From the IMG/VR virus record IMGVR_UViG_2654587976_000001, positions 32,001-96,000 of that record: DNA of 64,000 nucleotides. One strand, written 5' to 3'. Shown here piece after piece: positions 8,340-56,223 of this stretch (position 1 is its first letter; each line of letters begins with the position of its first letter). Below the pieces are notes generated by a model. The model ran no database searches. It saw only the letters and a list, made by a program, of their open reading frames with translations, and had not been told where the DNA came from. Position numbers and translations under genes: made by a program. This stretch comes from a virus. Its lineage: Duplodnaviria > Caudoviricetes.

Positions 8340-8367
8340 TCCGAATAAAATTAAAGTTTTATCAATA
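8340..8367 (-). repeat. 28-bp 11-6-11 junction site (minus orientation)
   Basis: Minus strand TATTGA TAAAA CTTTAA TTTTA TTCGGA, overlapping the TGA stop of 8362..8841. Confidence 0.55.
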
Positions 8368-8841
8368 GTGAATTTTAAAGAATTCGTTATCTTGTGGGTT
8401 TACTTTGAAAATCAAATCTAAACCTGAAACTTCTCCACTAACACCTTTAAGTTCTGCTCTAGAAATAATTTCGACATTGTTAAATTCTAAAGTAACCTTG
8501 TGTGACTTTGTTGTCTCAATATGGCGACCAATTGTTTCAGCTAATAGTTTGAATTCAGAGCGAGGAGTTTCTTTTAAAACTGAAATATATTGTTTCTTCC
8601 CTAACTTTGATTCAAAGGAGGTAGGAGCTTTATATTCACCTAAAAATTTAAGTACATCAAAGTTAAGCAGAGCATTCTTTGCAAAAATCAAATACGTTTC
8701 ATGTTCATCGCTATAAAAGATTTCAACATCTTGAAGAGTTGTTAAATCAATTAAAGACTCTTCAGTTTTTTTATCATACAAATGAAGGTTATACACTTCG
8801 TGCATTGCTAAGTCCACGTATATTTCCTCCCTGATTATCAT
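8362..8841 (-). CDS. Hypothetical phage protein
   Basis: 159 aa ORF in the late operon. Confidence 0.6.
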   Translation of the reverse strand: MIIREEIYVDLAMHEVYNLHLYDKKTEESLIDLTTLQDVEIFYSDEHETYLIFAKNALLNFDVLKFLGEYKAPTSFESKLGKKQYISVLKETPRSEFKLLAETIGRHIETTKSHKVTLEFNNVEIISRAELKGVSGEVSGLDLIFKVNPQDNEFFKIHY

Positions 8842-10030
8842 TTTTAAATCTAATTATGTATGTAGCTTCAATACCTGCATCATCAAAAACCATAAATTTT
8901 TGAGAAGGTTTTGTTCCGAACCGACCTTGCATCGCATAATCATCTGCACCGACAAGCGCTCCGTTTACTACAACTGTTGTGCTACCGTACTCTTTTTCAT
9001 AATTGTGATGAATATGACCACCGAATATGTAAGAAGGGATGTAGCCAAGTAATTGAGGTAATCGTGTTACACACTGATCAACACGATCGTAGTGTCCGTG
9101 TACAAACACGACTTCCTGATTGTTGATTTTAGCGGGGATGAAACCGTCTTGCTCAGGTTCAATGGAGATGTTCTTTATGTTCTTCAATCTGGCTTCGAGG
9201 TACCAATTAATGAGGTATTCAAAGTTTTCCTTAATCCCTACATCATTTTTAGAAGGGGAGAGGCGACCGTGATTACCTGCCACGTTGTAGAACTTAACTT
9301 CTTGAAACTCACTTGCCAACATCGCTAAAACCTCGGCAAGCGTTTCTGATACATATTTAATTTGTTCTACAGCATCTTCATTGGCCTGAACTCTTGTAGA
9401 CACATGAATAAGACCTCCGATTAAATCACCGAGGTTTGCTACATGTAATGTGGAGACATGATTCTGCTTACCATACTCAATCACTTTGTTGGTGAGATGT
9501 TCTACACGCTCATTAAAAATTTCTTTATTGAATTTGTTAATGCGGTTGTCGATTTCCATTCCGAAGTGCCAATCACTGAATAAAGCAAGTCCGTGTTTTT
9601 CAGCAATAGCAGGTGATGGGAAGGTGAAGCGAAGGGGTCTTTTTGACTCTAGAGATGCAATAGCTTGAACAACATCATCTTTAATTTGTTCAAACCGTGC
9701 TTGATTGGCAATGAATTTCCGGTATTCTCTTTTTTGATCTCGTGCTTTGATTGTTTGTTTTTCGGATTCAATGCGAATTTCTTCATGTTTTTGTTGAACT
9801 TCTTTGTTCATATTCTTTGAGATAAAGTAATCGTGCCAGCGCTCAAATTGTTTAAAGTCTTTACGCCATTTGCTTTCATCATAGTTGGTTCCCTGATCCT
9901 TGTTTAAAAGGGTAGCAATTGTTTTTGTGTCAATGTGATAAGTATCTTTGTTTTTGAAAAGTCTAATATGATAATCAGTGAACGATTCGTCTTTTTCTCG
10001 TTGTAAAACAGTATCTAAAATAGCTGTCAT
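8789..10030 (-). CDS. yonJ: Calcineurin-like metallophosphoesterase (YonJ-like)
   Basis: SDWH, GD, GNHG, HGH and GHIHH metallophosphoesterase motifs. Confidence 0.8.
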   Translation of the reverse strand: MTAILDTVLQREKDESFTDYHIRLFKNKDTYHIDTKTIATLLNKDQGTNYDESKWRKDFKQFERWHDYFISKNMNKEVQQKHEEIRIESEKQTIKARDQKREYRKFIANQARFEQIKDDVVQAIASLESKRPLRFTFPSPAIAEKHGLALFSDWHFGMEIDNRINKFNKEIFNERVEHLTNKVIEYGKQNHVSTLHVANLGDLIGGLIHVSTRVQANEDAVEQIKYVSETLAEVLAMLASEFQEVKFYNVAGNHGRLSPSKNDVGIKENFEYLINWYLEARLKNIKNISIEPEQDGFIPAKINNQEVVFVHGHYDRVDQCVTRLPQLLGYIPSYIFGGHIHHNYEKEYGSTTVVVNGALVGADDYAMQGRFGTKPSQKFMVFDDAGIEATYIIRFKNDNQGGNIRGLSNARSV

Positions 10031-10041
10031 TCAGTCACCAC

Positions 10042-12170: not shown

Positions 12171-12446
12171 TTAAGCTTTAACTGCGTCTTTTAGAGCTTT
12201 AGCAGCCTTGAATGCTGGTGCCTTTGTAGCTGGAATATCAATTTCCTCACCCGATTTTGGATTTCTCCCTTTACGAGCTGCACGTTCACGAACCTCAAAT
12301 GTTCCAACTCCAGGAATCTTGATTGATTCACCTTTTGTAAGTGTTTCAACGATTACATTAAATACTGCTTCTACTTTAGGCGTAGCTTCTTTCTTAGTAA
12401 CTCCTAATTTTTCTGCAACTTCTCCAACAAATTCTGTTTTGTTCAT
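12171..12446 (-). CDS. yonN: HU family DNA-binding protein (YonN)
   Basis: MNKTEFV...GTFEVRERAARKGRNPKSGEEIDIPA...PAFK, the classic HU signature. Confidence 0.95.
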   Translation of the reverse strand: MNKTEFVGEVAEKLGVTKKEATPKVEAVFNVIVETLTKGESIKIPGVGTFEVRERAARKGRNPKSGEEIDIPATKAPAFKAAKALKDAVKA

Positions 12447-12706: not shown

Positions 12707-13354
12707 TTACACCTTTTGATTTCTAAATCGGATGACTCGTTCCTTTGTTTTTTGTTTATTCCTCTTGACTGTACATTTCCCACAGAAAAGCTTCTTACTT
12801 GTTTTAGCCCTAAATAGCGTTTTACAATCACTACAAACTCTTAGTGTTTTCAGGTTGTGTGTTAGGTTGTTCAATATACAAGCACCGAAACATTCCCACA
12901 AAGTCGATTTGAATTTACTCTTCTTTTTATACAGATACTTAATCAGAACATCAGCAACATATTGCTCGTCTTCATGAATCTTCAGCAATCTGTCTTTAAT
13001 GACCTTATAAACATAAAGTTTTTGTCCAGGCTTAATGTCTTCATCATTCATGAGCCATTTCTTGTTTTGGTCTAATCGTTTGTACTCACTAATAATTGCC
13101 TCGTCCAACTTAATATCCTTGTTCTTGAGCAGGAAGCGATAATCGAACTTCCCTGCAACAGCTGCAAAATTAATTCGGTCTGAGGGGATAATGGAGTCTA
13201 ACTTATTTACTGTGCTTTCATTAATTAACTCAACGCTATGTTCTTCTTTATCCTTTGCATTGATGAAGAAGTGGGGTACTTTATTTTTTATGTAATCTTT
13301 GATTTTTTCATCGACATGATCAGGTCGGGTAGGCATGAATAAGGTTTTTGCGAA
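12707..13354 (-). CDS. yonO: YonO single-subunit RNA polymerase, exon 2
   Basis: Frame [14 protein letters not shown]... begins immediately after the intron's terminal G and joins exon 1 in frame. Confidence 0.85.
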
Positions 13355-13685
13355 CTTTGATACCCTCGGTTTCCCGATATTTTATTAGGGAATAGACCAT
13401 ATCATCATCTGTGCTAGACAGATGGTCAGCGCTTCATAATAAGGAATTTCACCTTATTATTACTCCATAAAGGATGGTCGTTGCACCTTCATTTACAAGT
13501 GCTTCCCAGCATGATGTAAACGCTTGGCACAGGGTTATCGTATCGATAAGGACTTAGAATTCCCCTGTTAGCACACTCATTGACGATCATTTCCTATCGC
13601 TGCTTTTCGCTGAATGCACACCCTAGATTTCTAGGTTCACTGACTTTTCATCCGCATATCGCTATGCGACGCGACTAAAAATTTA
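13355..13685 (-). ncRNA. ORF-less group I intron (331 nt) in yonO
   Basis: 5' exon ends in U (...AUCGAU) and pairs with internal guide GUCG via a U-G wobble. P7 is GACCAU/AUGGUC (GCAACGACCAU and GAUGAUAUGGUCU). The intron ends in G, and removing it restores the frame. Confidence 0.88.
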
Positions 13686-15560
13686 ATCGATAGTAAAGTT
13701 ATTTTCCATACATAACCATTTGATCACGTCCATATTTATGTTGTCACTGTTCCATATCTTAGTGATGTTGTTGCTGTACTCCCCGATATTGATCCCATAA
13801 GCAAGAGTTAGTGCTTCATAGATGTTTTTGCTATTAATCTCTTGTTTCTGGGCTACAGACATTTCATAATACAACGGAACGATGTTTTCCATATTACGCT
13901 TGGCAATATTGACGATTAACTCATCAGGAATAATTAAGGCCTTATCCCCGTCATTGTCGAACTGCAGCAGTTTAGATATTGGATCATGAATGCTGGTGTA
14001 AACACCTGGGGTAATGAACCACTTTTCATATTCCTCATCTTTTTTGTTCCACCTAACACCATGCTCTCTGAATAGGTGAGGGGAGCGGAGGATATCAATA
14101 TACCCTTCATCATATAAAGAACAATGGACATCACTTCCTGAAAGCAGTCCTTTTGGATTCTGGATGTTCAGAAATAATTTTTCGCAGAAAGCATACAGGT
14201 CAGGGCATAAGTATGTATAACGAGCACCATCAACAAGCAATTTTCCTGATTTGGCATCTTTAATCATGCTTTTCTTTTTATTTTTAATAATTTCTTTCGT
14301 GTGATCATCGTTAAGAAGTTCTGGATATAGAAGCAAAGCGTTCTGAAGAGCTGTTCGATGTTTCTTTTTCTCCGTAGCTCCAAGAACTCTTAACATGGTT
14401 TCTTTGTCAGTTCCCAATGTGGTAATCTCTTTTACAGTCTTAGAGCTCATTTGAATTAATTCTTCATCGGAGATATCTGTAAGTGTCTGGAGCATTTGAT
14501 AAGTGAGTTTACCTTCAATAGAAGGGTCTTCTTCGTTGAGTTTTGCCCCTAAGCATCCATATTTTTTATAATTGCCTTGATATTCTTCCCACGATGAATA
14601 ATACTTCCACATTTTAAACTGGCTTTTAGTGAAGATAATTTGAACATCATCTTTCACTACGTCCCATTCCTTGCCGTATATATCAGTTACTTTAAAAGCT
14701 TTGTTTTCCTCAGCAAATTTACGAAAATCAAAAGGGACTAATAAACCCTTTACCCATGGGAGTCTTACCATGAAGCTTTTACGACTTAGAGTGGGGAGTA
14801 TCATTCCGCAGCCATCTGTATGTTCAATGGGAATGTTCATTGTTTTTCGTGTGATATCGTAGGTATCTCGATCAATGTAGTCAACGAGACTCGACACATC
14901 AGTTTCTAAGTCGTTGACAACAATGGCTTTATCAATATCAATCTCCCAAGGGCTACTGGCACTGTTAGAAAGGGCCATATAGCTATTCCATTTGTTAATG
15001 CTACTACCACCAAGGGAGTTGATCTTTTCAATACTTAAGCCGCATGTCAAAGCATCCTGATACTTATCGTAGGTGCTTTTTTTAATGAAACATGACTTCT
15101 TTGTACGAATTTGACCGGCGCTGCTCGTGAAATAAATGTATTTTTCATTGTTATGTAAAAATCCCTGATCAATAATGTCCTTCAATACTTCAAAATGGTA
15201 AGTCTGGACAACCATGATTTCCTCTGAAAGGGTGTTTTCTTTAATCCCTAATGTTCGGGTCAACACTGAATCAAATAAAGAAATCACTTTATTATCCCTT
15301 AAGCTGTCAGTTCGAAGTGTTCTTATGTTATTATGTTCTTCGAATGCGGAATAGAGGCATTCTTTAAGGTATGTAATTCTTTGTGATATGTATTTCTTAT
15401 GTTTATTATTTACATTGTCTAATGTCTTAAGATAATCTCTGTATCTATAAGACTTCAAAATCTTATTATGTAATGAATTTTCTTTGTCATTATAAAATGC
15501 TGATGTGTCCACGCTGTATATGTGAACTTGCTTAGACAATCCGTCTTTTTTTCTTTTCAA
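13686..15560 (-). CDS. yonO: YonO single-subunit DNA-dependent RNA polymerase, exon 1 (spliced product ~840 aa)
   Basis: Catalytic QFDNDGD (DxDGD) and RSPH motifs, SPbeta synteny yonP-yonO-yonN. Confidence 0.9.
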
Positions 15561-24566: not shown

Positions 24567-24743
24567 CAAAATACACACTTTAATAATAAAAATAAAATAA
24601 GTATTGATAATTTAAAATAGTCATGTTATACTTAAATCAAGTTAAAACAACAGCAGAGCATACATATTTTAAGAATGAAAATAAAATAACTAAAACAAAA
24701 TGAAATGCATATTTTAAACAAAATTCTAGGTAGGTGATAATAA

Positions 24744-27688: not shown

Positions 27689-27716
27689 TCTCAATAATAC
27701 AACAATTTCAAACAGA
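27689..27716 (+). repeat. 28-bp 11-6-11 junction site
   Basis: TCTCAA TAATA CAACAA TTTCA AACAGA. Confidence 0.6.
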
Positions 27717-28234: not shown

Positions 28235-28262
28235 TCTAAATAAAACAGCAGTTTTAAAGAGA
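28235..28262 (+). repeat. 28-bp 11-6-11 junction site
   Basis: TCTAAA TAAAA CAGCAG TTTTA AAGAGA. Confidence 0.7.
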
Positions 28263-28347: not shown

Positions 28348-29853
28348 TTGGATAACTATGAGTCTAACATAAATATACTTAATGAGATTGATAAAAGATT
28401 AAGGAGATTTAATTTTAATTCTAAACTTGAATTATTAAGAGTGTTACATCATGCTACATCTGTAATTAATCCTAATGATGATTTTTTAATCAGTCTATTG
28501 CCTAATAATATATTAAGAAAACAAATTAGAGGTAACATATATAATCATGAACTAGCATATCTCTCCTTAGCCTCTATAATAGGGAAAGAGTGGGGTGGAT
28601 ATACGCCAGATATTAGTTATAATGATTTAGTGAAAGTAATTAAGTTATATCGAGAATATAATATTCCATTTAAGCATAAAGATGATTTGAATTTGTCTGA
28701 TCAGGAATTATTGTCACAATTTTCTGTGAGAGTCGGTTTACAACAATTTATTTATCAGAGGCATCCTTTTAAAAGTTTTTATAGGTATCACTATCTGTTT
28801 AATTATGAAAGCCCTGAAATTAATGTTAAAAAAATTTTTCTTGAATTGTTTGGTTATGAGTATGAAGATTATTTGTTATTCTCTTGGGCTTTATATAATT
28901 GTTCCTCGAAATACTGGGAAATTGATAAAGATAATTTTATTAGAACACTTGGGGAAATTTTCCGATTTTCTGAAACAAAAGTGAAAACTTTAATAAATAC
29001 CTTTTTAATTAATAGAGAAGAATTTATAGTTTTGTATGAACAATTTGCAACAATTGATCCAAAAATGAAAGTCTATGATTTCAACCCATTACTAATGAAA
29101 CCGATTGTAACCTCAAATGGCTCTGACCTTTTATTTCCAATGCCTTTTTCAATTTTCATAGCTGTTACAGAGGGGATGTATCAACAAATTTGCACTGCAA
29201 AAGGTTTGGAATTCAAAAGTGCTTTTGGAAAACACCCTTACGAAGATTACATAGAACATATTTTAAAACTTCATAATTATCTTTATATAAAAGAGTTTGT
29301 GTATAGATTTCAAAAGAACAATTTAAGATCCCCTGATTTTATGTTAGTTAAAAATAATCACGTTATCTTTATTGAATTAAAAGCAAGAGTACCCATGATA
29401 AGTTTAAGAACAACAAATTATACAAAATATAAAGAAGAGCTTAAAACTTCACTTGGTGCTGCACTTGCTCAGTGTTTTAAAAAGGAAGGTCATCTAAAAA
29501 GCGGCTTTATAAACCATGAAAAGTTACCTAAAAATATTTCGCGAATTTCACATATTGCTATTACACTTGAAGAATTTAATATTGCAGATGAAACTGGACT
29601 CGAAGAAGCAATAAAGGAAAATGGTGGAGTGCTTAGTGACTCTTCTTACCATGTTATGAGCACAGGAACATTAGAATCAATATTAGAAGAAGACACAAGG
29701 GATATTTTTCAATATTGTATCGATAGAGAAGAAGCTGGAACAACCAATAGGCACTTATCAGATGGAGATGTAAAAAGAGAAAAGTTAACTTCCACAAGAG
29801 ATCAAAATTTAATGGAACTCATTGTGAAAAAGAATAATCTAATTTCTAAATAA
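28348..29853 (+). CDS. AT-rich 501 aa protein with C-terminal PD-(D/E)XK/NERD-like nuclease motif, candidate defence gene
   Basis: YEDY...E...PDF...IFIELK...Q motif, own promoter (TG-CTATAAT at ~28282). Confidence 0.55.
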   Translation: MDNYESNINILNEIDKRLRRFNFNSKLELLRVLHHATSVINPNDDFLISLLPNNILRKQIRGNIYNHELAYLSLASIIGKEWGGYTPDISYNDLVKVIKLYREYNIPFKHKDDLNLSDQELLSQFSVRVGLQQFIYQRHPFKSFYRYHYLFNYESPEINVKKIFLELFGYEYEDYLLFSWALYNCSSKYWEIDKDNFIRTLGEIFRFSETKVKTLINTFLINREEFIVLYEQFATIDPKMKVYDFNPLLMKPIVTSNGSDLLFPMPFSIFIAVTEGMYQQICTAKGLEFKSAFGKHPYEDYIEHILKLHNYLYIKEFVYRFQKNNLRSPDFMLVKNNHVIFIELKARVPMISLRTTNYTKYKEELKTSLGAALAQCFKKEGHLKSGFINHEKLPKNISRISHIAITLEEFNIADETGLEEAIKENGGVLSDSSYHVMSTGTLESILEEDTRDIFQYCIDREEAGTTNRHLSDGDVKREKLTSTRDQNLMELIVKKNNLISK

Positions 29854-29872
29854 AAACACCATTTCATGCTAA
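29845..29872 (+). repeat. 28-bp 11-6-11 junction site containing the stop codon of the 501 aa gene
   Basis: TCTAAA TAAAA ACACCA TTTCA TGCTAA. Confidence 0.65.
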
Positions 29873-32620: not shown

Positions 32621-32865
32621 AGTAAACTAGGGAAGAATTGCAGGCTATTTTTATAAAATCATTCTTTTGAAGAGAGATAAAATATAAATGGGGTTATAAA
32701 AACTCTGTAATTGAGATCACCAGGTAAGATCAGAACCAGGATTAAAACATTATGTGTGCACAGTCTATAAATTTTAAGTAAATATTGTATTAATCCTTGT
32801 TTTTACGTACGTGGAAATCAGTCAGTCACTTTTGAAACAAACGAAGCTTAGTCTATTCAATTCAG

Positions 32866-36594: not shown

Positions 36595-36622
36595 TTTACA
36601 TAAAATACGAATTTTAAACAGA
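36595..36622 (+). repeat. 28-bp 11-6-11 junction site
   Basis: TTTACA TAAAA TACGAA TTTTA AACAGA, just after the hicB terminator hairpin. Confidence 0.65.
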
Positions 36623-36737
36623 TAAGTATTCCTTAAAAAATAATTAGCATAAAAATAAAATAAATACTTGTAATTCTGACAACTCTAATGTATATTATAA
36701 ACAAGGGAACATTAGTTGGGAAGGGGTGGAGTAACCA

Positions 36738-39140: not shown

Positions 39141-40199
39141 ATGGAAGCTCAAAAGAAAGCGTCAACACTAAGGGATTATTCAATATACAATAACATAAAT
39201 AGGTGGTTTGATGAATTAGATTTAAGAAACAGGGATCGAGAAACTGGAGAAATTGAAAAGTCTAATACTAGAGCCACGTATGAAAGGCATATAAGAGAGT
39301 TTTTCAACCACTATGCTGCCAAGGATATTGAATATTTAACTGAGAGTGACCTGGCGATTAAGAAGAGTGACCTGTATGATTATCGAACCCATTTGGCTAA
39401 AAATAAAAGCAACTCCAATTCAACAATTAACAATAAGATTGCCGCACTGAAAAGTATGATTAAGTACCTTGAATCTGAACATGAGTGTGATGCATCTGTA
39501 TTTAATTTTAGACCTCTTCCAACAGAAAAGAACCCAGCAGGCTCTTTTGAAGGAATATCTGAAGCTGATGAATTTGCTGAGGTAGCGTATGTTACTGAGC
39601 GTCAGAACAGATTAATGAAAAAGATGTTTATTTTGTTTAGTGCACGTACTGGTGGGCGTAAATCAGAGGTGCTTAGAGTTGGGTGGGATGATATTACTTA
39701 TTCAGAAAAGCACCAATGCTATCTCGTCAACTTTAAAAAAACTAAGCAAAAAAAGGCTAGACCAGTTGGGATTTCCACTGCTTTTTATGAAGAGTTGTTG
39801 CTGTTAAAGCAAGAGTATGTGGAACATGAGCTTTTATTTCATAAGTTAACAGTTGATTCAATACAGGATATGTGGAATCGCGTATGTAGAGTTATGGGCA
39901 TTCCCAAAGAAAGAAAGATAACTCCGCATAGTTTACGCAATACTGCAACAAACTTTTCTTACAGCGTTAATGGTGATATTAAAAAAGTGGCAGCGTTCTC
40001 TGGCCACAGTAATATCAATACTTTAAATGACCATTATTTAGTCAATGAAAGGGATTATTCTCAAGATCCAGGGGTTTTGGTTGATCAAAAAGAAGACATG
40101 TCCTTTTTAGAAGATGTTACCTTAGAGCAATATAAAGAATTCTTTTTAAAATCAGACATGTATATACAGAATAAACTTAAAATGTTTTTGAACAAGTGA
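39141..40199 (+). CDS. yopP: Tyrosine recombinase-family protein YopP (SroD-like)
   Basis: RTGGRKSE, KTK, HSLR and SGH...HY catalytic motifs. Confidence 0.8.
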   Translation: MEAQKKASTLRDYSIYNNINRWFDELDLRNRDRETGEIEKSNTRATYERHIREFFNHYAAKDIEYLTESDLAIKKSDLYDYRTHLAKNKSNSNSTINNKIAALKSMIKYLESEHECDASVFNFRPLPTEKNPAGSFEGISEADEFAEVAYVTERQNRLMKKMFILFSARTGGRKSEVLRVGWDDITYSEKHQCYLVNFKKTKQKKARPVGISTAFYEELLLLKQEYVEHELLFHKLTVDSIQDMWNRVCRVMGIPKERKITPHSLRNTATNFSYSVNGDIKKVAAFSGHSNINTLNDHYLVNERDYSQDPGVLVDQKEDMSFLEDVTLEQYKEFFLKSDMYIQNKLKMFLNK

Positions 40200-40275: not shown

Positions 40276-41625
40276 GTGTCTGAAGTTTTGTTGACAACGG
40301 ATAAACTTTATAAGTTAAAAACTGAAATAGAGGAAAATCTTAATGATATTAAAAATGATCCCAATATGGTGAAGGAATTAAAAGCCACAATGGCGGACAA
40401 ATACAAGGCACTCCCTGGTTATATCCAAGAAATTTTAAATAATAATGATAACAACGTACAGCGTTTAAACGAAAAAGAAGTGTACATTGTTTCAAAAGAG
40501 ATGTATTCAATTCTTGGGACGCAAGCCTTAGATCCGTCAAATTATTTTCCAACCAGATTGGCAAAAGAGCTTGAAGGTGGGAGAGTATTCGCCGGTGAAG
40601 AAGTAGTTAAGCTCCCATACAAGTTTAAAAATGTGATTAAAATTAAAGAGGATAACTATGTCACTTCCATTACTGCCAAAGAACTGAGTGAGTTATATAA
40701 TAGCTCCATCCTGCAGTACAATTACAACACTCAGCGTGAAGGAAAGTACATTAAGGGCAGCCTTATCCCTGTACCTAAAACAAATCCTAAATCAGTCGAT
40801 GAGATCAAAGAATTGTTTATTAAAGGCGATTTAATTGTGTCAATGTTAACTTTTAACGCTCGTCTTGGAACTTCTGATGGTGATGAAGAAGTTGAATATG
40901 ATCCAAGCGATCAAACCCTCACTGTAACACGAGGAACCTTATTAGATGCTCTAGATGGGTACCATCGAATTTCAGGTATTGTTAAGGCCATTGCTGAAGT
41001 CCCTGAATTAGATCAACCATTCATTTTAAATGTGCTCAATTATGATGAAGAAAAGGCTAAGGTTCACTTTGCTCAAATGAATACAATAAACCCAGTTGAA
41101 AAATCCAGAATTGAAGAATTAGGACAAAAACGGTATTCTTCAACCGTGGTCGAGCAACTGAAATTTAAAAGTGAACTTAAAAATAAAATAAGCCCACAAA
41201 GTGACATTGGTCTTGATAGCAATTTCCTTGTGACATATTACACTTTATCCGAAGCTATAGACGATGCATTTGAGTTGAAATCTCGAAAAGATGCATTAAA
41301 AATTTCAAAATACCTGGTTGACTTTTTTGATAACCTTTTTTATGCTTTCCCAGATGAATTTCTTGAAGATGATTTATCGTCCATTAGAAAGCAATCATAT
41401 ATTAATCATAACGTAATGTTTTACGGTTATGTTTATTTGGCCAAGAAGATGAAGGAAAACAATATAGAACTAAACAAGCTTGAAAGTATCCTTAATACAA
41501 TTGACTTTAGTAAAAGCGGAAGAGTGTTTGAAGAATTAGGAAGACAAAATAATGAGATTCAACTAAAGAATGTTATGAAGAAGAAACTTAAGCGAATATT
41601 TTATGATGAAATTGCTGTTGTTTAA
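40276..41625 (+). CDS. yopQ: YopQ (SroE-like), DndB/DGQHR-domain protein
   Basis: QR and LDGYHR motifs, located between yopP and yopR. Confidence 0.75.
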   Translation: MSEVLLTTDKLYKLKTEIEENLNDIKNDPNMVKELKATMADKYKALPGYIQEILNNNDNNVQRLNEKEVYIVSKEMYSILGTQALDPSNYFPTRLAKELEGGRVFAGEEVVKLPYKFKNVIKIKEDNYVTSITAKELSELYNSSILQYNYNTQREGKYIKGSLIPVPKTNPKSVDEIKELFIKGDLIVSMLTFNARLGTSDGDEEVEYDPSDQTLTVTRGTLLDALDGYHRISGIVKAIAEVPELDQPFILNVLNYDEEKAKVHFAQMNTINPVEKSRIEELGQKRYSSTVVEQLKFKSELKNKISPQSDIGLDSNFLVTYYTLSEAIDDAFELKSRKDALKISKYLVDFFDNLFYAFPDEFLEDDLSSIRKQSYINHNVMFYGYVYLAKKMKENNIELNKLESILNTIDFSKSGRVFEELGRQNNEIQLKNVMKKKLKRIFYDEIAVV

Positions 41626-41644: not shown

Positions 41645-42628
41645 ATGAGTGAAATGTATAATGCTGAATTGAAGGAAAAGTTTTTAGAGAAATACGAAAG
41701 TGAAGCAACAAGAAACCATTATTGGCTAAGGCTAAGGGATTTCTCAGCTACAGAAAAAATACTTCAAAAAGACATATTTAATTTTTCTTTGGAAGAGCTG
41801 CGTACGTTATTTTTCGATTTGGATAGCAAATCTATAGACTCATTAAGAGGAGCACGAGCTGTAATTGGACAATACACAACCTGGGCAATGGAAAATGGCT
41901 TGGCAAACAGTAACATCAACAAAGTGTATCAGATACAGGATGGTGACTTAAAGCAGTTTATAGATAAAAACAAAAAAACACTATTCACTAATAAAGAAGT
42001 AGAAGAGTATGTTGATTTTATGATTAATTATCAGGATAAGGCCATGATACAGGCTATTTATGAAGGTATAGATGGTTATCAGCATTCAGAGTTACTGAAT
42101 TTAACAGGTGACGATTTACTCGATGATAACAAGGTAAAGCTAGTAGATGATAAACATGGTGTAAGAATAATTACTGTAAGCGATAAATGTTATGAGTTAC
42201 TTAAGCGTGCTAATGACCAAAGAACATATCATCTTAGCAATGGTTCGCCAGATAGTAGCCTTAAAAACAAATTTGCCACATTAGTTAAAAGCGAAAATAT
42301 TTTTAGGCTAAAATATAAGAGCTCTAATCAGAGTATGAAAGCTGACAAATTTTTAGTTCATCGTTCTTTTAGTCAGTTTCAAAAATTTTTAGAAGAACCC
42401 TTCTTTACACCTAAAAATCTTATCAATTCAGGAAAGCTCAACATGGCGTATGCGATATATAAAGAGAAGGGTGAATTAAAAGTACCTGATTATAAACAAA
42501 TAACTCGACAATATGGGTTCTTGAATGAAGACGCGGAGTTTAATTCACAAACACTGAGGAAAGTAGTGAATATGGAGAACTTAGAAAAATATTGTATCAA
42601 GTCTGAAGTAATTGAGACTAATTCTTAA
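41645..42628 (+). CDS. yopR: Master repressor MrpR/YopR (integrase-like fold, degenerate catalytic site)
   Basis: [11 protein letters not shown]..., YEGIDG and PKNLINSG replace the R and HxxR motifs, SPbeta synteny. Confidence 0.8.
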
Positions 42629-43535: not shown

Positions 43536-43609
43536 AAATACATACACATCTTGTCAGTCATCATGAGACATAAAAAATTGGTGACTTTTTAGTCAGACTG
43601 GAGCATACA

Positions 43610-43963: not shown

Positions 43964-44188
43964 TTGATTAATGAACCAACTAACAATCAAATAAGAAGTA
44001 TGGTTTTAAGGAAATATGCAAAGCTCTTAGCATCATGTGAAAGATCTTTGCGCAGCATAGAGAACAATGAAATCAGAATGGCAATAGGAGACCTGGACTT
44101 TGTTAAAGACAATTTAGAGGAAATACAATACATACTTCGTGATGTTGTGAATCAGCATGAATATATTAAGGATAAAAATAAAATGTAA
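43964..44188 (+). CDS. Hypothetical protein
   Basis: 74 aa ORF after a TTTACA..TATAAT promoter. Confidence 0.5.
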   Translation: MINEPTNNQIRSMVLRKYAKLLASCERSLRSIENNEIRMAIGDLDFVKDNLEEIQYILRDVVNQHEYIKDKNKM

Positions 44189-44200
44189 GTTTTATAGAGA
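44173..44200 (+). repeat. 28-bp 11-6-11 junction site
   Basis: TAAAAA TAAAA TGTAAG TTTTA TAGAGA. Confidence 0.55.
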
Positions 44201-44220
44201 ATTAAAAAGGAGGAAACGTA

Positions 44221-46122: not shown

Positions 46123-46150
46123 TCTAGATAAAAGATGCATTTTAAAGTGT
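46123..46150 (+). repeat. 28-bp 11-6-11 junction site
   Basis: TCTAGA TAAAA GATGCA TTTTA AAGTGT. Confidence 0.7.
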
Positions 46151-46485: not shown

Positions 46486-46883
46486 TAAATCCGATAACTA
46501 AATCAACTCTGTGTAAAAGTTGCGAAGGAATGCTTGATCACAGTGTTGCGGGCAATGTCCCTTGGAGAGAGCAGTTTGGATAAAAATAAAAAATAAAAAG
46601 GTTGATAGAATGTGCAAAAAATGCTTTGTGCTTGTAAAGATGAATTAACACAACATGATTATTTAGTTGATCATAATAGATTTGAAGAAGGGTATCTATG
46701 TCTGGATTGCAGTACATTTAAACTCCTAGATGCCAATGGTGAATTTGATGTTTTGAAGCACTATAAACTAATGAAGTTCACAGCCAGTGACAATTGATTA
46801 CCTACATAAATACATAGACATTGATGAACGTACACAATTAATAAACTTTATAGAAGTAAAATTTTAATGGAAAGAGGAGCTAT

Positions 46884-47494: not shown

Positions 47495-47522
47495 ACTGGA
47501 TAAAAAGACTGTTTTAAAGAGA
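47495..47522 (+). repeat. 28-bp 11-6-11 junction site
   Basis: ACTGGA TAAAA AGACTG TTTTA AAGAGA. Confidence 0.65.
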
Positions 47523-47527: not shown

Positions 47528-47926
47528 ATGTTAATGGGAATGTATACAGAATTGGTATGTGCTTTTGAGCTTATTGAGGAAACATCAAGTCACATTATTG
47601 AAACGTTGGAGTTTATGAGTGGTCAACGAGATGAGCAACCAGATGAGTTGCCAGACCATAAGCTATTTGCTGAAGGAAGCAGATGGAAATGGATGCTTCA
47701 ATCGGATAGCTATTACTTCGATGGAAAAACTCACAGCGAAATTGTAAACGACACTCTTGTAGGTGGTTGCTATGTGACAATTAGATGCAATCTAAAAAAC
47801 TATGATAATGAGATTGAGAATTTTATTGAGTGGATTTCACCATTTATTTACAAAAAAGATGGGAATTACTTTATTGGCTACAAACGATATGAAGAGGATA
47901 AAGAGCCAGAATTAATCTTTGTTTAA
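47528..47926 (+). CDS. Hypothetical phage protein
   Basis: MGMYTE...LKNYDNEIENFIEWISP, its stop codon is part of the site at 47918. Confidence 0.65.
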   Translation: MLMGMYTELVCAFELIEETSSHIIETLEFMSGQRDEQPDELPDHKLFAEGSRWKWMLQSDSYYFDGKTHSEIVNDTLVGGCYVTIRCNLKNYDNEIENFIEWISPFIYKKDGNYFIGYKRYEEDKEPELIFV

Positions 47927-48096
47927 AAGGATTATTTCATTGTAAGGAGGAAGGCACATAGGTTATTTAAAGCACATAATTGATACAGCTTGGTTTAATT
48001 TAGTTTGGTTTAGATGGCATCTTGGAGCGGACATAAGCTTATTTGACGGCTGCGGATGGAATACATATAAATATTTAAAGAATAAAAATAAAATAA

Positions 48097-48327
48097 ATGG
48101 AGGTTATAAGGGTGATAAAGAGGAATCTGCTTAGCAACCACGTTGATGAGATTATTGGTGAATATTACGCTGCTAAAGGCTATTCAGTTCATAGCATTGA
48201 ACACCAGGAAAATGGACAACTGATTGTTGTTACGGAACGAGTAGCAGAGGAGAAGGAACCGGCAAAGGTTGATATCGCATTTGATTTTGTACATAGAAGA
48301 TCGCACAGAAAGAAGTATTTAGCTTAA
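48097..48327 (+). CDS. Hypothetical protein
   Basis: 76 aa ORF. Confidence 0.55.
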   Translation: MEVIRVIKRNLLSNHVDEIIGEYYAAKGYSVHSIEHQENGQLIVVTERVAEEKEPAKVDIAFDFVHRRSHRKKYLA

Positions 48328-48796: not shown

Positions 48797-48824
48797 TTAA
48801 ATTAAAATCGTGATTTTAAACAGA
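48797..48824 (+). repeat. 28-bp 11-6-11 junction site
   Basis: TTAAAT TAAAA TCGTGA TTTTA AACAGA. Confidence 0.65.
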
Positions 48825-48834: not shown

Positions 48835-49242
48835 TTGATACATGGGCTTATATGTAACACAGGGAGCATTCGAGGGGCATACTCGTCATTCAATAATCTT
48901 AGAAGGTTTTTATTAAAATCAATTGGAGGTAGTTGGCCACCACATGATAACCAAAAATTCAAGGATGGCTATTGGTATTTTGGTAAAGGCTATTCAACAA
49001 AAAACCATAAGGGGCTAACAGAGTTTTTCGGTCATTCAGATTGTGATGGAGTAATTACACCTGAAATGTGTAAAGTTGTTGCAGAGGAATTAGAAGCCAT
49101 CTTACCCTTTGCAGAAGAGTTGGCAAATGTGGAAATGTCTCATGATTATATGCTACCTAATAGGTACATAGAGACTGCAAAACAGTTTATCAATGGGTGT
49201 AGATTGGCATTTGAGTTGAATGAGCCATTAGAGTTTAGATAA
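48835..49242 (+). CDS. Hypothetical phage protein (HSDCDG motif)
   Basis: GAYSSFNNLR...HSDCDG.I.PE, bracketed by sites at 48797 and 49234. Confidence 0.65.
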   Translation: MIHGLICNTGSIRGAYSSFNNLRRFLLKSIGGSWPPHDNQKFKDGYWYFGKGYSTKNHKGLTEFFGHSDCDGVITPEMCKVVAEELEAILPFAEELANVEMSHDYMLPNRYIETAKQFINGCRLAFELNEPLEFR

Positions 49243-49261
49243 AAGATAGTTTTCAACTAAA
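49234..49261 (+). repeat. 28-bp 11-6-11 junction site containing a stop codon
   Basis: TTTAGA TAAAA GATAGT TTTCA ACTAAA. Confidence 0.6.
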
Positions 49262-52140: not shown

Positions 52141-52359
52141 ATGCAACGGCAAACAGTTGAGGTAAAAGAAGTTGAAGTGTTGATTAGAGGTATATGGACA
52201 AAGAAGAAGTTCACGGATATCCAAAAGGGGCAAACCTTTAAAATTGAGGAAAATGGGAAAACAACAAAATACATAGCAAGAACAGAACCCTATTGGGATG
52301 ACATGTATGAGACTTACATAATTGATTTATTAGATAAAAATAAAATAAGTGTAGGGTGA
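52141..52359 (+). CDS. Hypothetical protein (yoqX position)
   Basis: ATG behind AAGGAGG (track start 52099). Confidence 0.55.
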
Positions 52360-52685
52360 TATTTATGAATTTATTGAGAGATGCGCGGATATTAAGAATA
52401 GAACTTCTTCTTGGAGCTTTAGCGTTAGTAGGTATGAACTTGTTTGTATATTTTCTATTCGGTGGTTTAACAGCCATAGACAATCAGAGGATGATAACAC
52501 GAAGAATTGGAATGTTTGTTGTAAGTATTGGAATACCATGTTCTTTTATTCTAAAGTACTTGATCGTTTGGAGACCGTTAATCCGTAAGGCAATGGAAGA
52601 GTTAAAGGAAGAAGATCAGAATGAACGTACACTCAAGAAATATGAATTTCTAAGAAAGAAATTTGATAAAACAGAGATTTTATAA
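52356..52685 (+). CDS. Membrane protein
   Basis: Two TM segments, ends inside the site at 52661. Confidence 0.55.
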
Positions 52686-52688
52686 AGA
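52661..52688 (+). repeat. 28-bp 11-6-11 junction site
   Basis: ATTTGA TAAAA CAGAGA TTTTA TAAAGA. Confidence 0.6.
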
Positions 52689-52870: not shown

Positions 52871-53341
52871 ATGAGGGAAATTAAGTTCAGAGGAATGGGT
52901 ATTAACGGTGAATGGTATTACGGCAATATATCAATCATCAAACAAAGAATCAAGAGCATGGGCATTGATCCTGGTTCTTATATCTCTAATAAAGCTGGTG
53001 TTCCATTTGCTTACAAAGTGAGGCCGGAAACAGTTGGGCAATTCACCGGATTGAAGGATAAGAACGGCCGGGATATTTATGAAGGGGATATACTTCGTGT
53101 ATGGGAAGAGAATGAACATGTTCCAAATCGTGATAGTGGTGGCGGCATTATCGACTTTGACAAAATCGAAGGGTTTTCACAGTTAGGAGTAGTCGACTTC
53201 AAGAGTGCTTGGTTTACTTATGAAACTAAAAAACATCAAAAAGAACGAGAAGAAGATATCTTTGCACCATTAGATTTTACTAATAACTATGAAGTCACTG
53301 GGAACATCTATGAAGATTCAGAGCTTATAAAATCTAAATAA
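52871..53341 (+). CDS. YopX family protein
   Basis: MREIKFRG...VRPETVGQFTGLKDKNGRDIYEGDI...EVTGNIYE. Confidence 0.85.
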   Translation: MREIKFRGMGINGEWYYGNISIIKQRIKSMGIDPGSYISNKAGVPFAYKVRPETVGQFTGLKDKNGRDIYEGDILRVWEENEHVPNRDSGGGIIDFDKIEGFSQLGVVDFKSAWFTYETKKHQKEREEDIFAPLDFTNNYEVTGNIYEDSELIKSK

Positions 53342-53360
53342 AAACGATATTTTACAGAAA
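53333..53360 (+). repeat. 28-bp 11-6-11 junction site containing a stop codon
   Basis: TCTAAA TAAAA ACGATA TTTTA CAGAAA. Confidence 0.7.
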
Positions 53361-53374
53361 GAGGAGGAGTGAAA

Positions 53375-53518
53375 ATGTTTACCTGCTTCTGCAACGAATG
53401 TAAAAAAGTAATCGAAAAAGATGAAGTTGATTATGAGGTTGATTTGGTAGAAGGGTCTTGGGAAGGAGATTGGGAACACGTGCATTTAGAATGCGGTAGT
53501 ATTGTGTCTTGGATTTAA
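53375..53518 (+). CDS. Small Zn-binding protein (47 aa)
   Basis: GAGGAGG RBS, CNEC...H..C, sole content between sites 53333 and 53527. Confidence 0.6.
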   Translation: MFTCFCNECKKVIEKDEVDYEVDLVEGSWEGDWEHVHLECGSIVSWI

Positions 53519-53526
53519 CTTGTATG

Positions 53527-53554
53527 TCTAAATAATAGTGATTTTTTATTTAAG
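53527..53554 (+). repeat. 28-bp 11-6-11 junction site
   Basis: TCTAAA TAATA GTGATT TTTTA TTTAAG. Confidence 0.6.
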
Positions 53555-53630
53555 GGGGTGATAACAATGTGAGTTACCAATGTGTTTGAGTTTTAAGAAT
53601 AAAACAAAAATAAAAAGGAGTGGTTATTAA

Positions 53631-54455
53631 TTGTTAAGGATTAAAAACAGAATAGAGGATTTGTTAAAAAAGATTGAAGAGGCAGAGAGGGTCAGCTTTG
53701 GGCGGCGTCCCCAACTCTGCATGCATCGTATCACTACGAAGCTATTAAAGTATATCACAGGTAAGAAGGCTTTTCCAGTCTTGGTGGCTGCTCTGGTTTC
53801 ATTCCTGAATCCAGTGAGTATTTTAGCAGCGGACAAGTATCGGAACTTTGAAGAGCTTAAAGCGAATGAATCACCGTTCAATTTTAGCGTGTTCTCAAAA
53901 GAGCAAGACACTGGTGTATTAATTCTTGCTCCCCATGGAGGTGGCATAGAAGGGGGAACAAGCGAGCTTGCAAAGGAATTAAGCGAAACATACTCTACAT
54001 ATCTTTTTGAAGCTTTAAAGACACCAGGAGCATTTGATTTACATTTAACCAGTACGAATTTTGATGAACCACAAGCACTTGAAATGTTGAAGGGACATGA
54101 GTTCACACTGTCACTTCATGGCTACGCAAGTAATGAGGAACATGTTTTAGTTGGCGGCACAGATCGAGACAAAGCTGAAGCGATAACAAGTACATTGAAT
54201 GATGCCGGCTACTCTGCGGAGCTTCTTGATGAAGGGACAAGGTTATCTGGTAGTAGCCCAAATAATGTTGCCAATAAAAATAAAACAGGAAAGAGCATTC
54301 AACTAGAATTGAGCACTGGATTGCGTAAATCAATGTTTAACACCTTTTCTCTAAAAGGACGCTCAGGCACAAGAAATGAGACCTTTTATAACTTCATTGA
54401 CACTCTATCAGGGTTTCTCAATGAAAATGTAGAAGGGAAGGGTTTGACAGCATGA
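53631..54455 (+). CDS. yoqZ: Poly-gamma-glutamate hydrolase (YoqZ/PghZ, DUF867)
   Basis: APHGGGIEGGTSE, HLTST.FDEP, SLHG and QLELS motifs. Confidence 0.88.
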   Translation: MLRIKNRIEDLLKKIEEAERVSFGRRPQLCMHRITTKLLKYITGKKAFPVLVAALVSFLNPVSILAADKYRNFEELKANESPFNFSVFSKEQDTGVLILAPHGGGIEGGTSELAKELSETYSTYLFEALKTPGAFDLHLTSTNFDEPQALEMLKGHEFTLSLHGYASNEEHVLVGGTDRDKAEAITSTLNDAGYSAELLDEGTRLSGSSPNNVANKNKTGKSIQLELSTGLRKSMFNTFSLKGRSGTRNETFYNFIDTLSGFLNENVEGKGLTA

Positions 54456-56200
54456 ATATGCAGCAGCCCTTATACTATTTTGTTGATGCTCTGGTTTGGG
54501 GAATTGATGATAAAGGGTCAAATGCAATTGAAACAACAGAAGGATTAAACCGGGCTTTAAAGTACGCAAGCTCAAAATCATTCTATAAAGTACATATCCC
54601 AAAAGGTATCTATTTAATTGATGCTGTGAATACGTCAAAGCGGTTGCCTGAATTTGGAGGAGGTATTAATGTACCGTCAAATATTGAGTTGATACTGCAT
54701 CCAGAGGCTATTTTTAAAGTGCAGCCAAATGATTCTCAAGGTTACTCCTGTTTTTATATCGGCCAAGCAAGTAACGTTACGATTCGTGGTGGTCAAATTA
54801 TTGGAGATCGATATGAACATGATTACTCTAAAATCAATGCAATTCAAAGGACTCATGAATGGGGATACGGCATACATGTTCATGGTAGTAGCAATGTGTT
54901 AATTGACGGCGTGAGTGTCTCTGATTGTATTGGAGATAACATTTGGATAGCAGCGGAAGGAATGATGAACACTTCAGGAACATATACGCCCTCAAAGAAT
55001 GCAACCGTTCGAAAGTGTACGCTTTTAAGAGGGAGAAGAAATAACCTGGCTACCAATGGCTGTGAAGGTCTTCTTGTCGATGACTGTGATATAGAGGAGG
55101 CTGGTGGAGATACAATTGGGCCACAATTAGGAATTGATTTAGAGGGCTTTGGAGAAAACGGAATTAAATACGATCACCCATATAAATTAACTGTTCGAAA
55201 CTGCAGGTTTAAAAATAATGGACGTGGATCCGTTACAGCTCACACAAGCGGCAAGGTAATTATTGAAGGAAACTACAGCGACCATGTTATTTCCTATGGA
55301 TATAGCACGGATGTCAGTATCAAAAATAACAAGATCATCAATGAAAAGGAAATTAAGACATATGGGATTGACTCGGTAGGTGTTTCAAGTACTGAGTCTG
55401 GAAACAGAGTTCAAATTGATGGCAATACGATCAGTGGCTTTGAAGTGGGTATTTGTGTAAGAGGAAAGGGTGGCACAGTATCAAATAACACTTTTGAAAA
55501 AATAAAAGCATGCCCTATTGCAACACATCAAGCAGAGGACTTTTTAATTACGGACAACAGGATAGAAAACAGTGATTGTGTTCAAGTCCAGGTTAGAAAC
55601 TCAAATGATATTAAGGTTGTGAATACCAAAGGAAAAGGAACGAGCTCATCATATGCTGCAAAGATAATGGACTCTACCCGAATCAGTCTCGTTAATAATG
55701 AGTTTGCTAATGTATATGGAGGAATTTATTGCGAAAGGTCTCAGTCAGTTCGTTTAAAGGGAAATGACTTGTTGTTAAGTGGAAGTGGAAGTGGGTACGG
55801 CATCTTTTGGGATAAAGACTCTTCTGTCTCACTACATCGAAATGAAATTCATGAGCCTAGGAATGTTGCAATTAAAGGCACCCCTGAGAAATACAGTTGC
55901 CAGATTAGTGAGAATCAGATTTATTTCTGTAAATCATTGATCGCTATCCAACTAACTGGGGGTTCAGAACACATGTTAAAGGATAATGAGATTATGTTTA
56001 ATCGTTCAGCAGATCAAGGATATGGCGTTTATTTGGAGAATACAAACAAGGTACGTCTCGTAAGGAACGATGTTTATGTAATTGGTGGACGGTTGCTATC
56101 CCATCCTTTTTACACAGAAAAAGCAAAGAATACAACCTTAGTTCAGAATACATACAATAGTGGAACGCTGAAGACTGCAGAAGGAGATATTGTAGTCTAA
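54452..56200 (+). CDS. yorA: Right-handed parallel beta-helix protein (YorA-like, pectate-lyase fold)
   Basis: IPKGIYLI, GDR..H, EWGYGI and GIDLE motifs plus many PbH1-type repeats. Confidence 0.75.
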   Translation: MNMQQPLYYFVDALVWGIDDKGSNAIETTEGLNRALKYASSKSFYKVHIPKGIYLIDAVNTSKRLPEFGGGINVPSNIELILHPEAIFKVQPNDSQGYSCFYIGQASNVTIRGGQIIGDRYEHDYSKINAIQRTHEWGYGIHVHGSSNVLIDGVSVSDCIGDNIWIAAEGMMNTSGTYTPSKNATVRKCTLLRGRRNNLATNGCEGLLVDDCDIEEAGGDTIGPQLGIDLEGFGENGIKYDHPYKLTVRNCRFKNNGRGSVTAHTSGKVIIEGNYSDHVISYGYSTDVSIKNNKIINEKEIKTYGIDSVGVSSTESGNRVQIDGNTISGFEVGICVRGKGGTVSNNTFEKIKACPIATHQAEDFLITDNRIENSDCVQVQVRNSNDIKVVNTKGKGTSSSYAAKIMDSTRISLVNNEFANVYGGIYCERSQSVRLKGNDLLLSGSGSGYGIFWDKDSSVSLHRNEIHEPRNVAIKGTPEKYSCQISENQIYFCKSLIAIQLTGGSEHMLKDNEIMFNRSADQGYGVYLENTNKVRLVRNDVYVIGGRLLSHPFYTEKAKNTTLVQNTYNSGTLKTAEGDIVV

Positions 56201-56223
56201 ATAAAACTGTAGTTTTAACAAGA
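56196..56223 (+). repeat. 28-bp 11-6-11 junction site
   Basis: TCTAAA TAAAA CTGTAG TTTTA ACAAGA. Confidence 0.7.

Follow-up and report, generated by a model that had tools for sequence, protein, structure and literature searches.

SPbeta and phi3T serve as models of arbitrium signalling, and how they are repressed is being actively investigated. The window analysed here is a stretch of 64,000 nucleotides (positions 32,001 to 96,000 of the IMG/VR record IMGVR_UViG_2654587976_000001) from a 128,870-bp phage genome with patchy 85-93% identity to SPbeta, phi3T, the Goe phages, the SPbetaL phages and BUCT083. A 28-bp palindrome, made up of two inverted arms with a 6-bp centre (the spacer) between them, recurs along it, and most of the copies stand at gene junctions. 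A first-pass annotation of the window had listed 20 of these copies as dif-like sites and had read them as recombination sites or scars of an integron-like cassette system. We find that the spacers differ from site to site within a genome but recur in the same order in other genomes, that the cores of the sites persist as islands, and that breakpoints between related phages concentrate at them; these observations are new. No description of the motif was found in the literature searched, and term look-ups in the Kohm 2021 preprint, the 2021 SPbeta review and the 2026 Perkons paper returned nothing relevant to it; Lazarevic et al. (1999), Brady et al. (2023) and supplementary peak tables may mention the motif or its binder.

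Junction sites in the window

The 20 sites are given below in window coordinates, without an assigned strand. Scores in bits are those of the position weight matrix (PWM) introduced in the next section, site positions count from 1 to 28, and HSP denotes a high-scoring segment pair in the blastn comparisons with relatives; ORF is open reading frame.

24695..24722, junction site, spacer TGCATA, 18.4 bits; spacer present in 6 of 7 genomes with different flanks
27689..27716, junction site, spacer CAACAA, 18.6 bits; the BUCT083 HSP 27689-28263 begins here, left edge of the block
28235..28262, junction site, spacer CAGCAG, 24.6 bits; right edge of the BUCT083 block, homology stopping in the right arm
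29845..29872, junction site, spacer ACACCA, 17.9 bits; TAA at positions 7-9 is the stop of ORF 28348-29853
32648..32675, junction site, spacer TCATTC, 18.9 bits
33446..33473, junction site, spacer CTACGA, 17.6 bits; start codon 12 nt after; BUCT083 HSP from 33458
36595..36622, junction site, spacer TACGAA, 21.0 bits; upstream of a SroF-type box and the aimR promoter
44173..44200, junction site, spacer TGTAAG, 20.5 bits; left arm overlaps a SroF-box-like core
46123..46150, junction site, spacer GATGCA, 19.6 bits; SPbetaL4 HSP ends at 46149
46845..46872, weak junction site, spacer GTAAAA, 12.6 bits
47178..47205, weak junction site, 12.0 bits; stop of ORF 46884-47186 at site positions 7-9
47495..47522, junction site, spacer AGACTG, 22.7 bits; Goe14 HSP from 47497
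47918..47945, junction site, spacer GGATTA, 18.7 bits; HSP starts at 47924
48797..48824, junction site, spacer TCGTGA, 21.2 bits; SPbeta, phi3T and Goe14 HSPs end at 48819, in the right arm
49234..49261, junction site, spacer GATAGT, 18.9 bits; joint of a two-site indel relative to SPbetaL2
52661..52688, junction site, spacer CAGAGA, 19.1 bits
53333..53360, junction site, spacer ACGATA, 20.7 bits; TAA at positions 7-9 is the stop of ORF 52871-53341; SPbetaL4 HSP ends at 53371
53527..53554, junction site, spacer GTGATT, 16.1 bits; HSP starts at 53526-53533 in three relatives
56196..56223, junction site, spacer CTGTAG, 23.7 bits; start codon 16 nt after
8340..8367, junction site, spacer TTAAAG, 17.1 and 16.1 bits by strand; in the minus-strand late region; slot present in 5 of 6 compared genomes

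Sequence and geometry of the palindrome

The consensus over seven genomes is TCTaAATAAAAt-N4-aTTTTATt.AGA, a near-perfect palindrome of 28 bp in which the gap between TAAAA and TTTTA is strictly 6 bp. Counts of TAAAA-Nk-TTTTA are 23 at k=6 and 0-4 at each other k from 0 to 14; in 84 kb of SPbeta the corresponding counts are 29 for the 6-bp gap and 0-3 at other spacings. Inverted 11-bp arms around a 6-bp centre are the layout of a tyrosine-recombinase core site, and only the 6-bp gap is enriched. A PWM, built with the six central columns masked and applied at a cut-off of 14 bits, gave 41 strand-hits in the window; over 30 dinucleotide shuffles it averaged 1.33 and never exceeded 4. These hits mark 21 places in the window and 36 in the whole genome, 31 of the latter between 56.6 and 126.7 kb. 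Chance or AT-richness as the source of the motif is ruled out by the shuffles together with the spacing profile.

The scan against shuffled sequence that the first-pass annotation had proposed thus returned a strong enrichment, and its consensus, taken literally, has six matches with up to three mismatches where 0.02 are expected. All 20 of its coordinates hold the motif, 18 of them at 14 bits or more and the two weak sites, 46845 and 47178, at 12.6 and 12.0. Its description requires revision in other respects. The three "degenerate copies" that it placed at 25328, 34003 and 35162 are half-sites at best. The arms that it called imperfect inverted repeats are indeed inverted, but the element is essentially palindromic, each site scoring about equally on both strands (within about 0-4 bits), and the co-orientation with transcription that it reported therefore rests only on purine-rich arm positions that adjoin the ribosome-binding site on the sense strand.

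When 207 distinct 28-mers were compared, 52 changes in the five inner arm pairs affected one side only and none was compensated on the other. The 36-nt RNAs around the sites have a mean folding energy of -2.6 kcal/mol against -1.7 kcal/mol for shuffles. The lack of covariation and the negligible folding argue that the arms are read as double-stranded DNA sequence by a binder of two-fold symmetry, not as a hairpin; without compensatory arm changes, a folded site like the attC of integrons is likewise not indicated.

Position of the sites relative to genes

Gene calls were taken from a crude heuristic caller, on which all junction statistics depend. With these calls the genome is 86% coding and 31 of the 36 sites lie at gene junctions, typically between a stop codon and the next ribosome-binding site. 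Seven sites supply the stop codon of the gene before them, as the TAA at positions 7-9, and in 11 sites a plus-strand start codon follows 12-17 nt beyond the site, so that the ribosome-binding site abuts the right arm. All three placements, at junctions, over stop codons and before ribosome-binding sites, had been noticed in the first-pass annotation and were confirmed. In SPbeta, too, the TAA of an exact core is the annotated stop codon at least nine times (yoqG, yoqS, yoqY, yorT, mtbP, yorZ, yosC, yosF and yosR). A few matches fall inside long ORFs, including a helicase-like gene (2309, 55475 and 61454).

The possibility that the sites are promoters or terminators was considered and rejected, since between 24 and 57.5 kb the matches are about as many as in shuffles: promoter-like sequences number 99 (shuffles 85.8) and 41 (45.7), terminator-like ones 13 (7.9) and 6 (6.7). 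No Rfam family was matched at the sites.

Spread among phages and hosts

Seven complete genomes contain 34-44 PWM sites each, with the same consensus whatever their type of SroF, the master repressor, or of YopP, an integrase-like protein (both described below). In SPbeta, exact TAAAA-N6-TTTTA cores number 34 (reversed control: 2), and five further records gave 24-28 matches against 1-2 in the control with a pattern of 16 specified bases and up to two mismatches. Psychrobacillus phage Perkons, which lies outside the genus (its YonO is 51% identical), has 17 exact cores against 2 in the reversed control and 0-3 at spacings other than k=6, and its cores stand just upstream of ribosome-binding sites. 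When a 14-base form of the motif was searched against viral contigs, those among the matches listed were single chance matches in AT-rich contigs.

In a 4.5-Mb Bacillus genome with a related prophage the motif matched 72 times against 40 in the control, with a dense run on the prophage contig among the places listed, and in a second assembly 24 of 25 motif cores lie on one 133-kb phage contig (L008). This concentration on phage contigs indicates that the motif belongs to the phage and not to the host; a host-wide motif is ruled out by the contig distribution in the two assemblies. L008 stands in an assembly labelled Streptomyces and encodes a YopP 99% identical to that of the window; it is apparently the contig of a Bacillus phage that was placed in the wrong assembly.

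Slot-specific spacers and islands of identity

The 268 sites in the seven genomes carry 84 distinct spacers, and apart from a single exception each is used only once per genome. Between 13 and 21 spacers are common to the window genome and each relative, in exactly the same order. The statement of the first-pass annotation that the spacer differs at every copy therefore stands within one genome and fails between genomes, where the same position, here called a slot, keeps its spacer.

This conservation does not depend on homologous surroundings. Among cross-genome pairs of sites with the same spacer and no homology within 120 bp to the left or to the right, 190 share their orientation and 21 are reversed, the latter serving as the chance control for a palindrome; for 90 of the 190, similarity is also lacking at the protein level within 500 bp of the site in both directions. 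In these pairs identity is 0.81-1.0 at positions 6 to 22 and at background outside. With homology confined to the left flank, identity of at least 0.9 extends through position 22 and falls off at 23-24; with homology confined to the right flank, the fall comes to the left of position 6. A core of 16-18 bp thus survives as an island between unrelated flanks. Slot GTTTTA has at least five different left and at least six different right neighbours in the seven genomes, and slot AGACTG (site 47495) is present in all seven, with four or more kinds of context on the left and as many on the right. A contig from a metagenome, unconnected with the named genomes, shares just about 30 bp with the window at 46845 and at 47495, the genes in between having been replaced. 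Genome pairs share ancestry and the pair counts are not counts of independent events.

One core of Perkons, at 129638-129653, has the spacer TTTGTC, which is that of a slot of the Bacillus phages (103689 in the window genome), where about 0.3 such coincidences are expected; this could be chance or a slot conserved across genera.

A separate repeat, the SPBRE and the SroF box

The same phages carry a second repeat. It is said that Lazarevic et al. (1999) defined the SPBRE in the SPBc2 genome paper. Predicted in 1999, the SPBRE is described as having been recognised in 2023 as the sequence bound in SPbeta by the master repressor MrpR (YopR), a protein with a tyrosine-recombinase fold whose recombinase function is reported as lost; chromatin affinity purification followed by sequencing (ChAP-seq) of MrpR gave ten peaks at named promoters, all at SPBRE (PMC10516654). 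By eye, a sequence approximating AAATACAAAwAATATGTATATAA and unlike the palindrome is found within 300 bp upstream of nine of the ten peak genes in AF020713. The SroF of phi3T is reported to bind a 26-bp asymmetric box as a monomer (Chmielowska et al. 2025, bioRxiv 10.1101/2025.11.27.690993).

Within three mismatches, the published SPBRE and SroF motifs have no match in the window and none at the palindromes. The window genome has 19 SroF-type boxes with the core ATAAAAATAAAAT, like the phi3T box on the other strand, mostly upstream of promoter-like sequences. As the box copies stand apart from the palindromes, two separate repeat families coexist. In SPbeta the palindrome adjoins the SPBRE upstream of aimR and yorE, after a terminator, and the layout upstream of its aimR is the same as at site 36595 of the window. 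Features of this family and of the aimR region are:

36644..36667, plus strand, SroF-type operator box; resembles the reverse complement of the 26-bp phi3T box; 22 bp past site 36595
20918-20941, 24578-24605, 38379-38406, 48074-48101, 52326-52353, 57141-57168 and 57579-57606, SroF-type operator boxes, examples from the genome-wide family
36738-37877, AimR homologue, downstream of site 36595

Breakpoints between relatives

Comparison of the genome with six relatives by blastn yielded 174 HSP ends in the compared 57 kb; such ends are accurate to a few bases only, and the conserved arms extend alignments. An HSP end falls in 16 of 20 site-bearing junctions and in 30 of 94 site-free ones (Fisher p = 1e-4). 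The excess is also seen in the accessory region alone (14/17 against 18/61, p = 1.5e-4) and among intergenic spacers of 25-120 bp (9/10 against 7/25, p = 0.002), though site-free spacers are longer. Homology ends at the edges of the 16-18-bp core; a phi3T/BUCT083 block, 36635-44213, ends at site 44173. The expectation of the first-pass annotation that breakpoints of gene gain, loss and replacement coincide with the sites is borne out by this excess over other junctions, and so is its view that the sites mark the boundaries of mosaic modules. Its integron-like cassettes, each with a site at either end, find no support in the indels described next, in the slot-specific spacers or in the arms, which lack compensatory changes.

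Simple indels beside a site were found in 34 directed comparisons, which represent about nine events, and all 34 are one-ended: at one end of the insert its genome carries the site with the same spacer, and at the other end there is no site, the score being at most 3.4 bits. In two of the events the other end retains the left arm only. The spacer stays with the left flank at 28235, 44173, 46123, 48797 and 53333 and with the right flank at 27689, 47495 and 49234. At 49234, relative to SPbetaL2, the left arm is that of a site with spacer TCTTGT and the spacer and right arm are those of a site 1.5 kb downstream. About 500 comparisons have homology on one flank: the same spacer is retained in 139 of 218 left-flank-only and 173 of 282 right-flank-only pairs, 33 have a different spacer and 107 have no site. 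The 33 cases with another spacer suggest a graded dependence on the length of homology.

Breakpoints are not peculiar to the palindromes. HSP ends also fall at 6 of 15 SroF-type boxes, compared with 7.6% of random windows and 15 of 23 palindromes, which suggests that any conserved short motif may serve as a crossover point. In laboratory hybrids of phi3T and SPbeta (Hyb1-3 and PP526179), the parental sequences switch inside multi-kb tracts of more than 99.5% identity; ordinary homologous recombination therefore operates in these phages. Relatives in runs X5 and X21 lack window 52347-52664 and 53355-53622, the former being replaced by 27 other bases joined at the left arm of site 52661. The X1 contig from an RNA library covers the stretch in one piece and carries no information on transcripts, and the raw RNA run X21 contains just a relative of 90-95% likeness. 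No junctions of excised circles were seen in the reads, in which the joints are strain differences at 90-95% likeness, and we do not claim that circles are absent.

Candidate binding proteins

Four genes of the window bear on the question of what might bind the palindrome:

39141..40199, plus strand, YopP/SroD homologue, candidate binder; Pfam Phage_integrase (E 4e-14), N-terminal SAM-like domain
40276..41625, plus strand, YopQ/SroE homologue, candidate binder; Pfam DndB (E 6e-16), DndB/ParB-like
41645..42628, plus strand, YopR/MrpR/SroF homologue, master repressor; Pfam MrpR_N_CB and MrpR_C_cat; binds a different repeat
12171..12446, minus strand, YonN homologue of the HU family, candidate binder; Pfam Bac_DNA_binding (E 6e-33)

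A Cro-like YopS, also encoded in the window, is a further candidate. Small helix-turn-helix dimers or HU-family proteins could bind palindromes of such a layout, and YonN is the most conserved of the candidates, being at least 74.7% identical in six relatives and 48% identical in Perkons. Perkons retains homologues of YopP, YopQ, YopR, YonN and YonO, and its gene content does not discriminate between the candidate binders.

In an alignment with two host Xer-like proteins, the Arg, Lys, His-x-x-Arg and His of YopP are retained, and a Tyr is present to within one residue. The catalytic set Arg-Lys-His-Arg-His-Tyr is kept in the window phage and in phi3T, and the SPbeta type, 33% identical to the phi3T type, has Lys at the second Arg; the YopP of the window is thus apparently a catalytically intact tyrosine recombinase. 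A phmmer search of YopP against PDB sequences gave no match at E <= 0.01. Brady et al. (2023), writing on the sro operon, reportedly treat SroD as an auxiliary repressor. SroE is described as a second repressor with an unclear role (Chmielowska et al. 2025, bioRxiv 10.1101/2025.11.27.690993), which suggests that no separate motif had been assigned to it by then.

Interpretation of the palindromes

Any reading has to start from what is directly observed, namely the motif, its geometry, its position at junctions, its spread through the family, the slot-specific spacers, the islands and the breakpoint excess. We give about even credence to the view that the palindromes are protein-binding junction elements that act as short-homology linkers for module exchange. 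A dimeric protein conserved across the SPbeta-like group would bind the palindrome as double-stranded DNA, contacting two half-sites TCTnnATAAAA around a 6-bp centre that it does not read. The first-order role of the element would be architectural or regulatory, for example insulating or blocking read-through transcription in the manner of a stoperator, and co-resident SPbeta-like phages would recombine by crossover inside the core. With selection holding the arms constant and the centre of each slot inherited unchanged, every slot would offer at least 16-18 bp of perfect identity; because the elements are the only sequence shared between unrelated modules, they would become the crossover points, and crossovers in the slot cores would swap modules slot by slot with gene order kept. 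The breakpoints at SroF boxes, the one-ended indels (34/34) and the 33 cases with another spacer together suggest that the exchange is driven by homology. Protein binding, the identity of the binder, the role of the site and the choice of homology-driven over site-specific crossovers are the parts of this account that we infer.

Several points weigh against it. The binder is postulated, and the regulatory role is purely deduced for sites that lie away from promoters; the ChAP-seq of MrpR gave only its ten peaks, all at SPBRE (PMC10516654). For recombination of the RecA type 16-18 bp of identity is short, and no single-strand annealing protein of the phage was identified. The four laboratory hybrids are neutral as to crossovers at the sites. 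Site-specific exchange would be fitted equally well by the 11-6-11 geometry, the sharp edges of the islands and an apparently intact YopP, and crude gene calls and non-independent genome pairs underlie the junction statistics.

That site-specific exchange would be carried out by a phage tyrosine recombinase (YopP/SroD) or host Xer cleaving at the edges of the centre, and as strand exchange needs identical centres, only same-slot sites of two phages would recombine. We regard this as rather doubtful. It would account for the strict 6-bp centre between 11-bp inverted repeats, for spacers that are private within a genome and collinear between genomes, for islands that end at the spacer-proximal arms, and for the one-flank pairs that keep their spacer (139/218 left, 173/282 right). 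The Phage_integrase domain and catalytic set of YopP in the window phage and phi3T are in line with it, as is the co-occurrence of YopP homologues with the motif out to Perkons. It sits badly, however, with simple indels that are one-ended without exception and with joints between different spacers (49234 relative to SPbetaL2 and the 33 one-flank cases), as well as with the hot spots at SroF boxes, whose binder is described as having no recombinase activity (PMC10516654). Moreover, the two YopP types are only 33% identical, with Lys at the second Arg in SPbeta, and the motif is unchanged between them, and the more conserved HU-like YonN is at least an equal candidate binder; the reported role of SroD as an auxiliary repressor also weighs against it. 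In its fullest form, which we consider unlikely, the proposal amounts to natural recombinase-mediated cassette exchange, in which about 35-45 heterospecific 11-6-11 sites would each use a private 6-bp overlap as a positional address and YopP/SroD would swap like-addressed DNA. Were this true, accessory genes could be reshuffled at a high rate without breaking gene order, and the involvement of a recombinase would make the system a new kind of genome-shuffling device.

An RNA-level element upstream of the Shine-Dalgarno sequence, acting in processing, as a ribosome stand-by site or as the target of a translational regulator in polycistronic early mRNAs, is quite improbable. The 11 sites with a plus-strand start codon 12-17 nt downstream, the same arrangement in Perkons and the purine-rich arm positions beside the ribosome-binding site on the sense strand speak for such a role, but the arms show 52 one-sided and no compensated changes with negligible predicted hairpins, about one third of the sites are not beside a start codon, and some stand after a terminator and upstream of a promoter (aimR here; aimR and yorE in SPbeta); the absence of an Rfam family at the sites counts against it too.

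Still less probable are integron-like or Tn916-like mobile cassettes, in which genes with a site at either end would be excised as circles and reinserted elsewhere, and we consider this reading largely refuted. Several adjacent site pairs do bracket one or a few genes, and there is one two-site indel, at 49234 relative to SPbetaL2, with a second inferred from coordinates without alignment (the phi3T yoqG homologue is followed by the spacer that follows yoqI in SPbeta). Against this, spacers belong to slots and not to cassettes, there are no duplicated spacers to mark insertions, all 34 simple indels involve a single site, and the joints in reads are strain differences at 90-95% likeness, not circles. 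The sites neither travel with a cassette nor bound each one, and a folded strand with structure kept and sequence free is not what the arms show, being devoid of folded-site covariation.

That the sites are themselves SPBRE, operators of MrpR/YopR/SroF, is hardly credible and is ruled out by sequence comparison: MrpR, with its tyrosine-recombinase fold, does bind a repeated element in SPbeta (PMC10516654), the left arm of the palindrome has the stretch AAATAAAA in common with the phi3T-type box, and site 44173 overlaps a box-like core, but the SPBRE of SPbeta differs in sequence, the phi3T box is a 26-bp asymmetric element read by a monomer, the 19 box copies stand apart, the palindrome is identical where SroF boxes differ, and ChAP-seq gave 10 peaks, not about 34 (PMC10516654).

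Comparison with known systems

The slot-wise replacement of modules is, in our analysis, the old linker-sequence idea of modular phage evolution, and slot-specific spacers together with islands offer an unusually clean natural example of module-boundary linkers, long proposed and rarely documented. As a repeat, the palindrome is the second in these phages besides SPBRE, more numerous (34-44 copies) and conserved beyond the genus, and none of the texts consulted assigns a binding protein to it.

One natural comparison is with PeSLs, whose cassettes are reportedly treated by Comeau et al. (2014) as well. PeSLs are described as mediating modular shuffling in T4-type phages (Arbiol et al. 2010, PMC2839356). 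Like the palindromes, they are short repeated intergenic motifs in plastic regions, and the ends of indels and replacements between relatives fall at both (PMC2839356). According to the same description, a PeSL combines a sigma-70-like promoter with a terminator stem-loop, whereas the SPbeta element is a 28-bp AT-rich palindrome with neither; PeSLs have no slot-specific centre, and their mini-circles have been physically shown, while the palindromes are known from sequence alone.

Stoperators occur by the dozen and are oriented with transcription. Those of cluster A mycobacteriophages are described as distributed repressor-type sites (McGinnis et al. 2022, PMC9283540); they occupy short gaps between genes, frequently next to stop codons and apart from promoters, as do the palindromes, of which 31 of 36 lie at junctions with no excess of promoter-like sequences. 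In that account stoperators are asymmetric, read by a monomer and variable between immunity groups, whereas the palindrome is the same across SroF types. The SPBRE and SroF boxes, too, are repeated and intergenic and form breakpoint hot spots in the same phages, and their binder has the fold of a tyrosine recombinase; they differ from the palindrome in sequence and in being asymmetric, bound by a monomer, placed at promoters, present in 10-19 copies and specific to the SPbeta or phi3T type.

With Xer/dif and pdif sites, compared by overall layout only, the palindrome shares the 11-6-11 arrangement of inverted arms around a 6-bp centre; dif, however, is single-copy per replicon and pdif has XerC/XerD arm pairs, whereas about 36 palindromes occur per genome, each with its own centre. 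Integron attC sites are likewise imperfect inverted repeats with a variable middle that separate cassettes, but attC travels with its cassette and is used as a folded single strand with its structure kept; the centre of the palindrome belongs to the slot, and it is the arm sequence that is kept. Engineered heterospecific lox and FRT sites have identical arms and different spacers, and only sites with like spacers recombine. Their exchange is a formal analogue of the slot pattern, swapping DNA with order unchanged, with the difference that they are engineered and have a proven recombinase; for the palindromes the recombinase step is hypothetical and is in part argued against by the data.

Other features of the window

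A homologue of the N-terminal part of the YonO RNA polymerase was recognised in the window, and the YonO homologue is split into two minus-strand ORFs, 13683-15560 (625 aa) and 12707-13336. Relative to SPbeta, blastn places about 330 extra bases at one point inside yonO (window 13337-13684), an insert that may be intron-like; it has no Rfam intron match at the gathering score. Two Goe records likewise annotate a split yonO_1/yonO_2. Two matches to the Pistol ribozyme lie among small early ORFs, at 25712-25766 and 26275-26342 on the plus strand, with 41.3 and 66 bits, above the gathering score. On the minus strand, 18813-18910 matches the Bacillus SR6 antitoxin RNA with 86 bits, at the place of the yonT/SR6 type I toxin-antitoxin locus of SPbeta.

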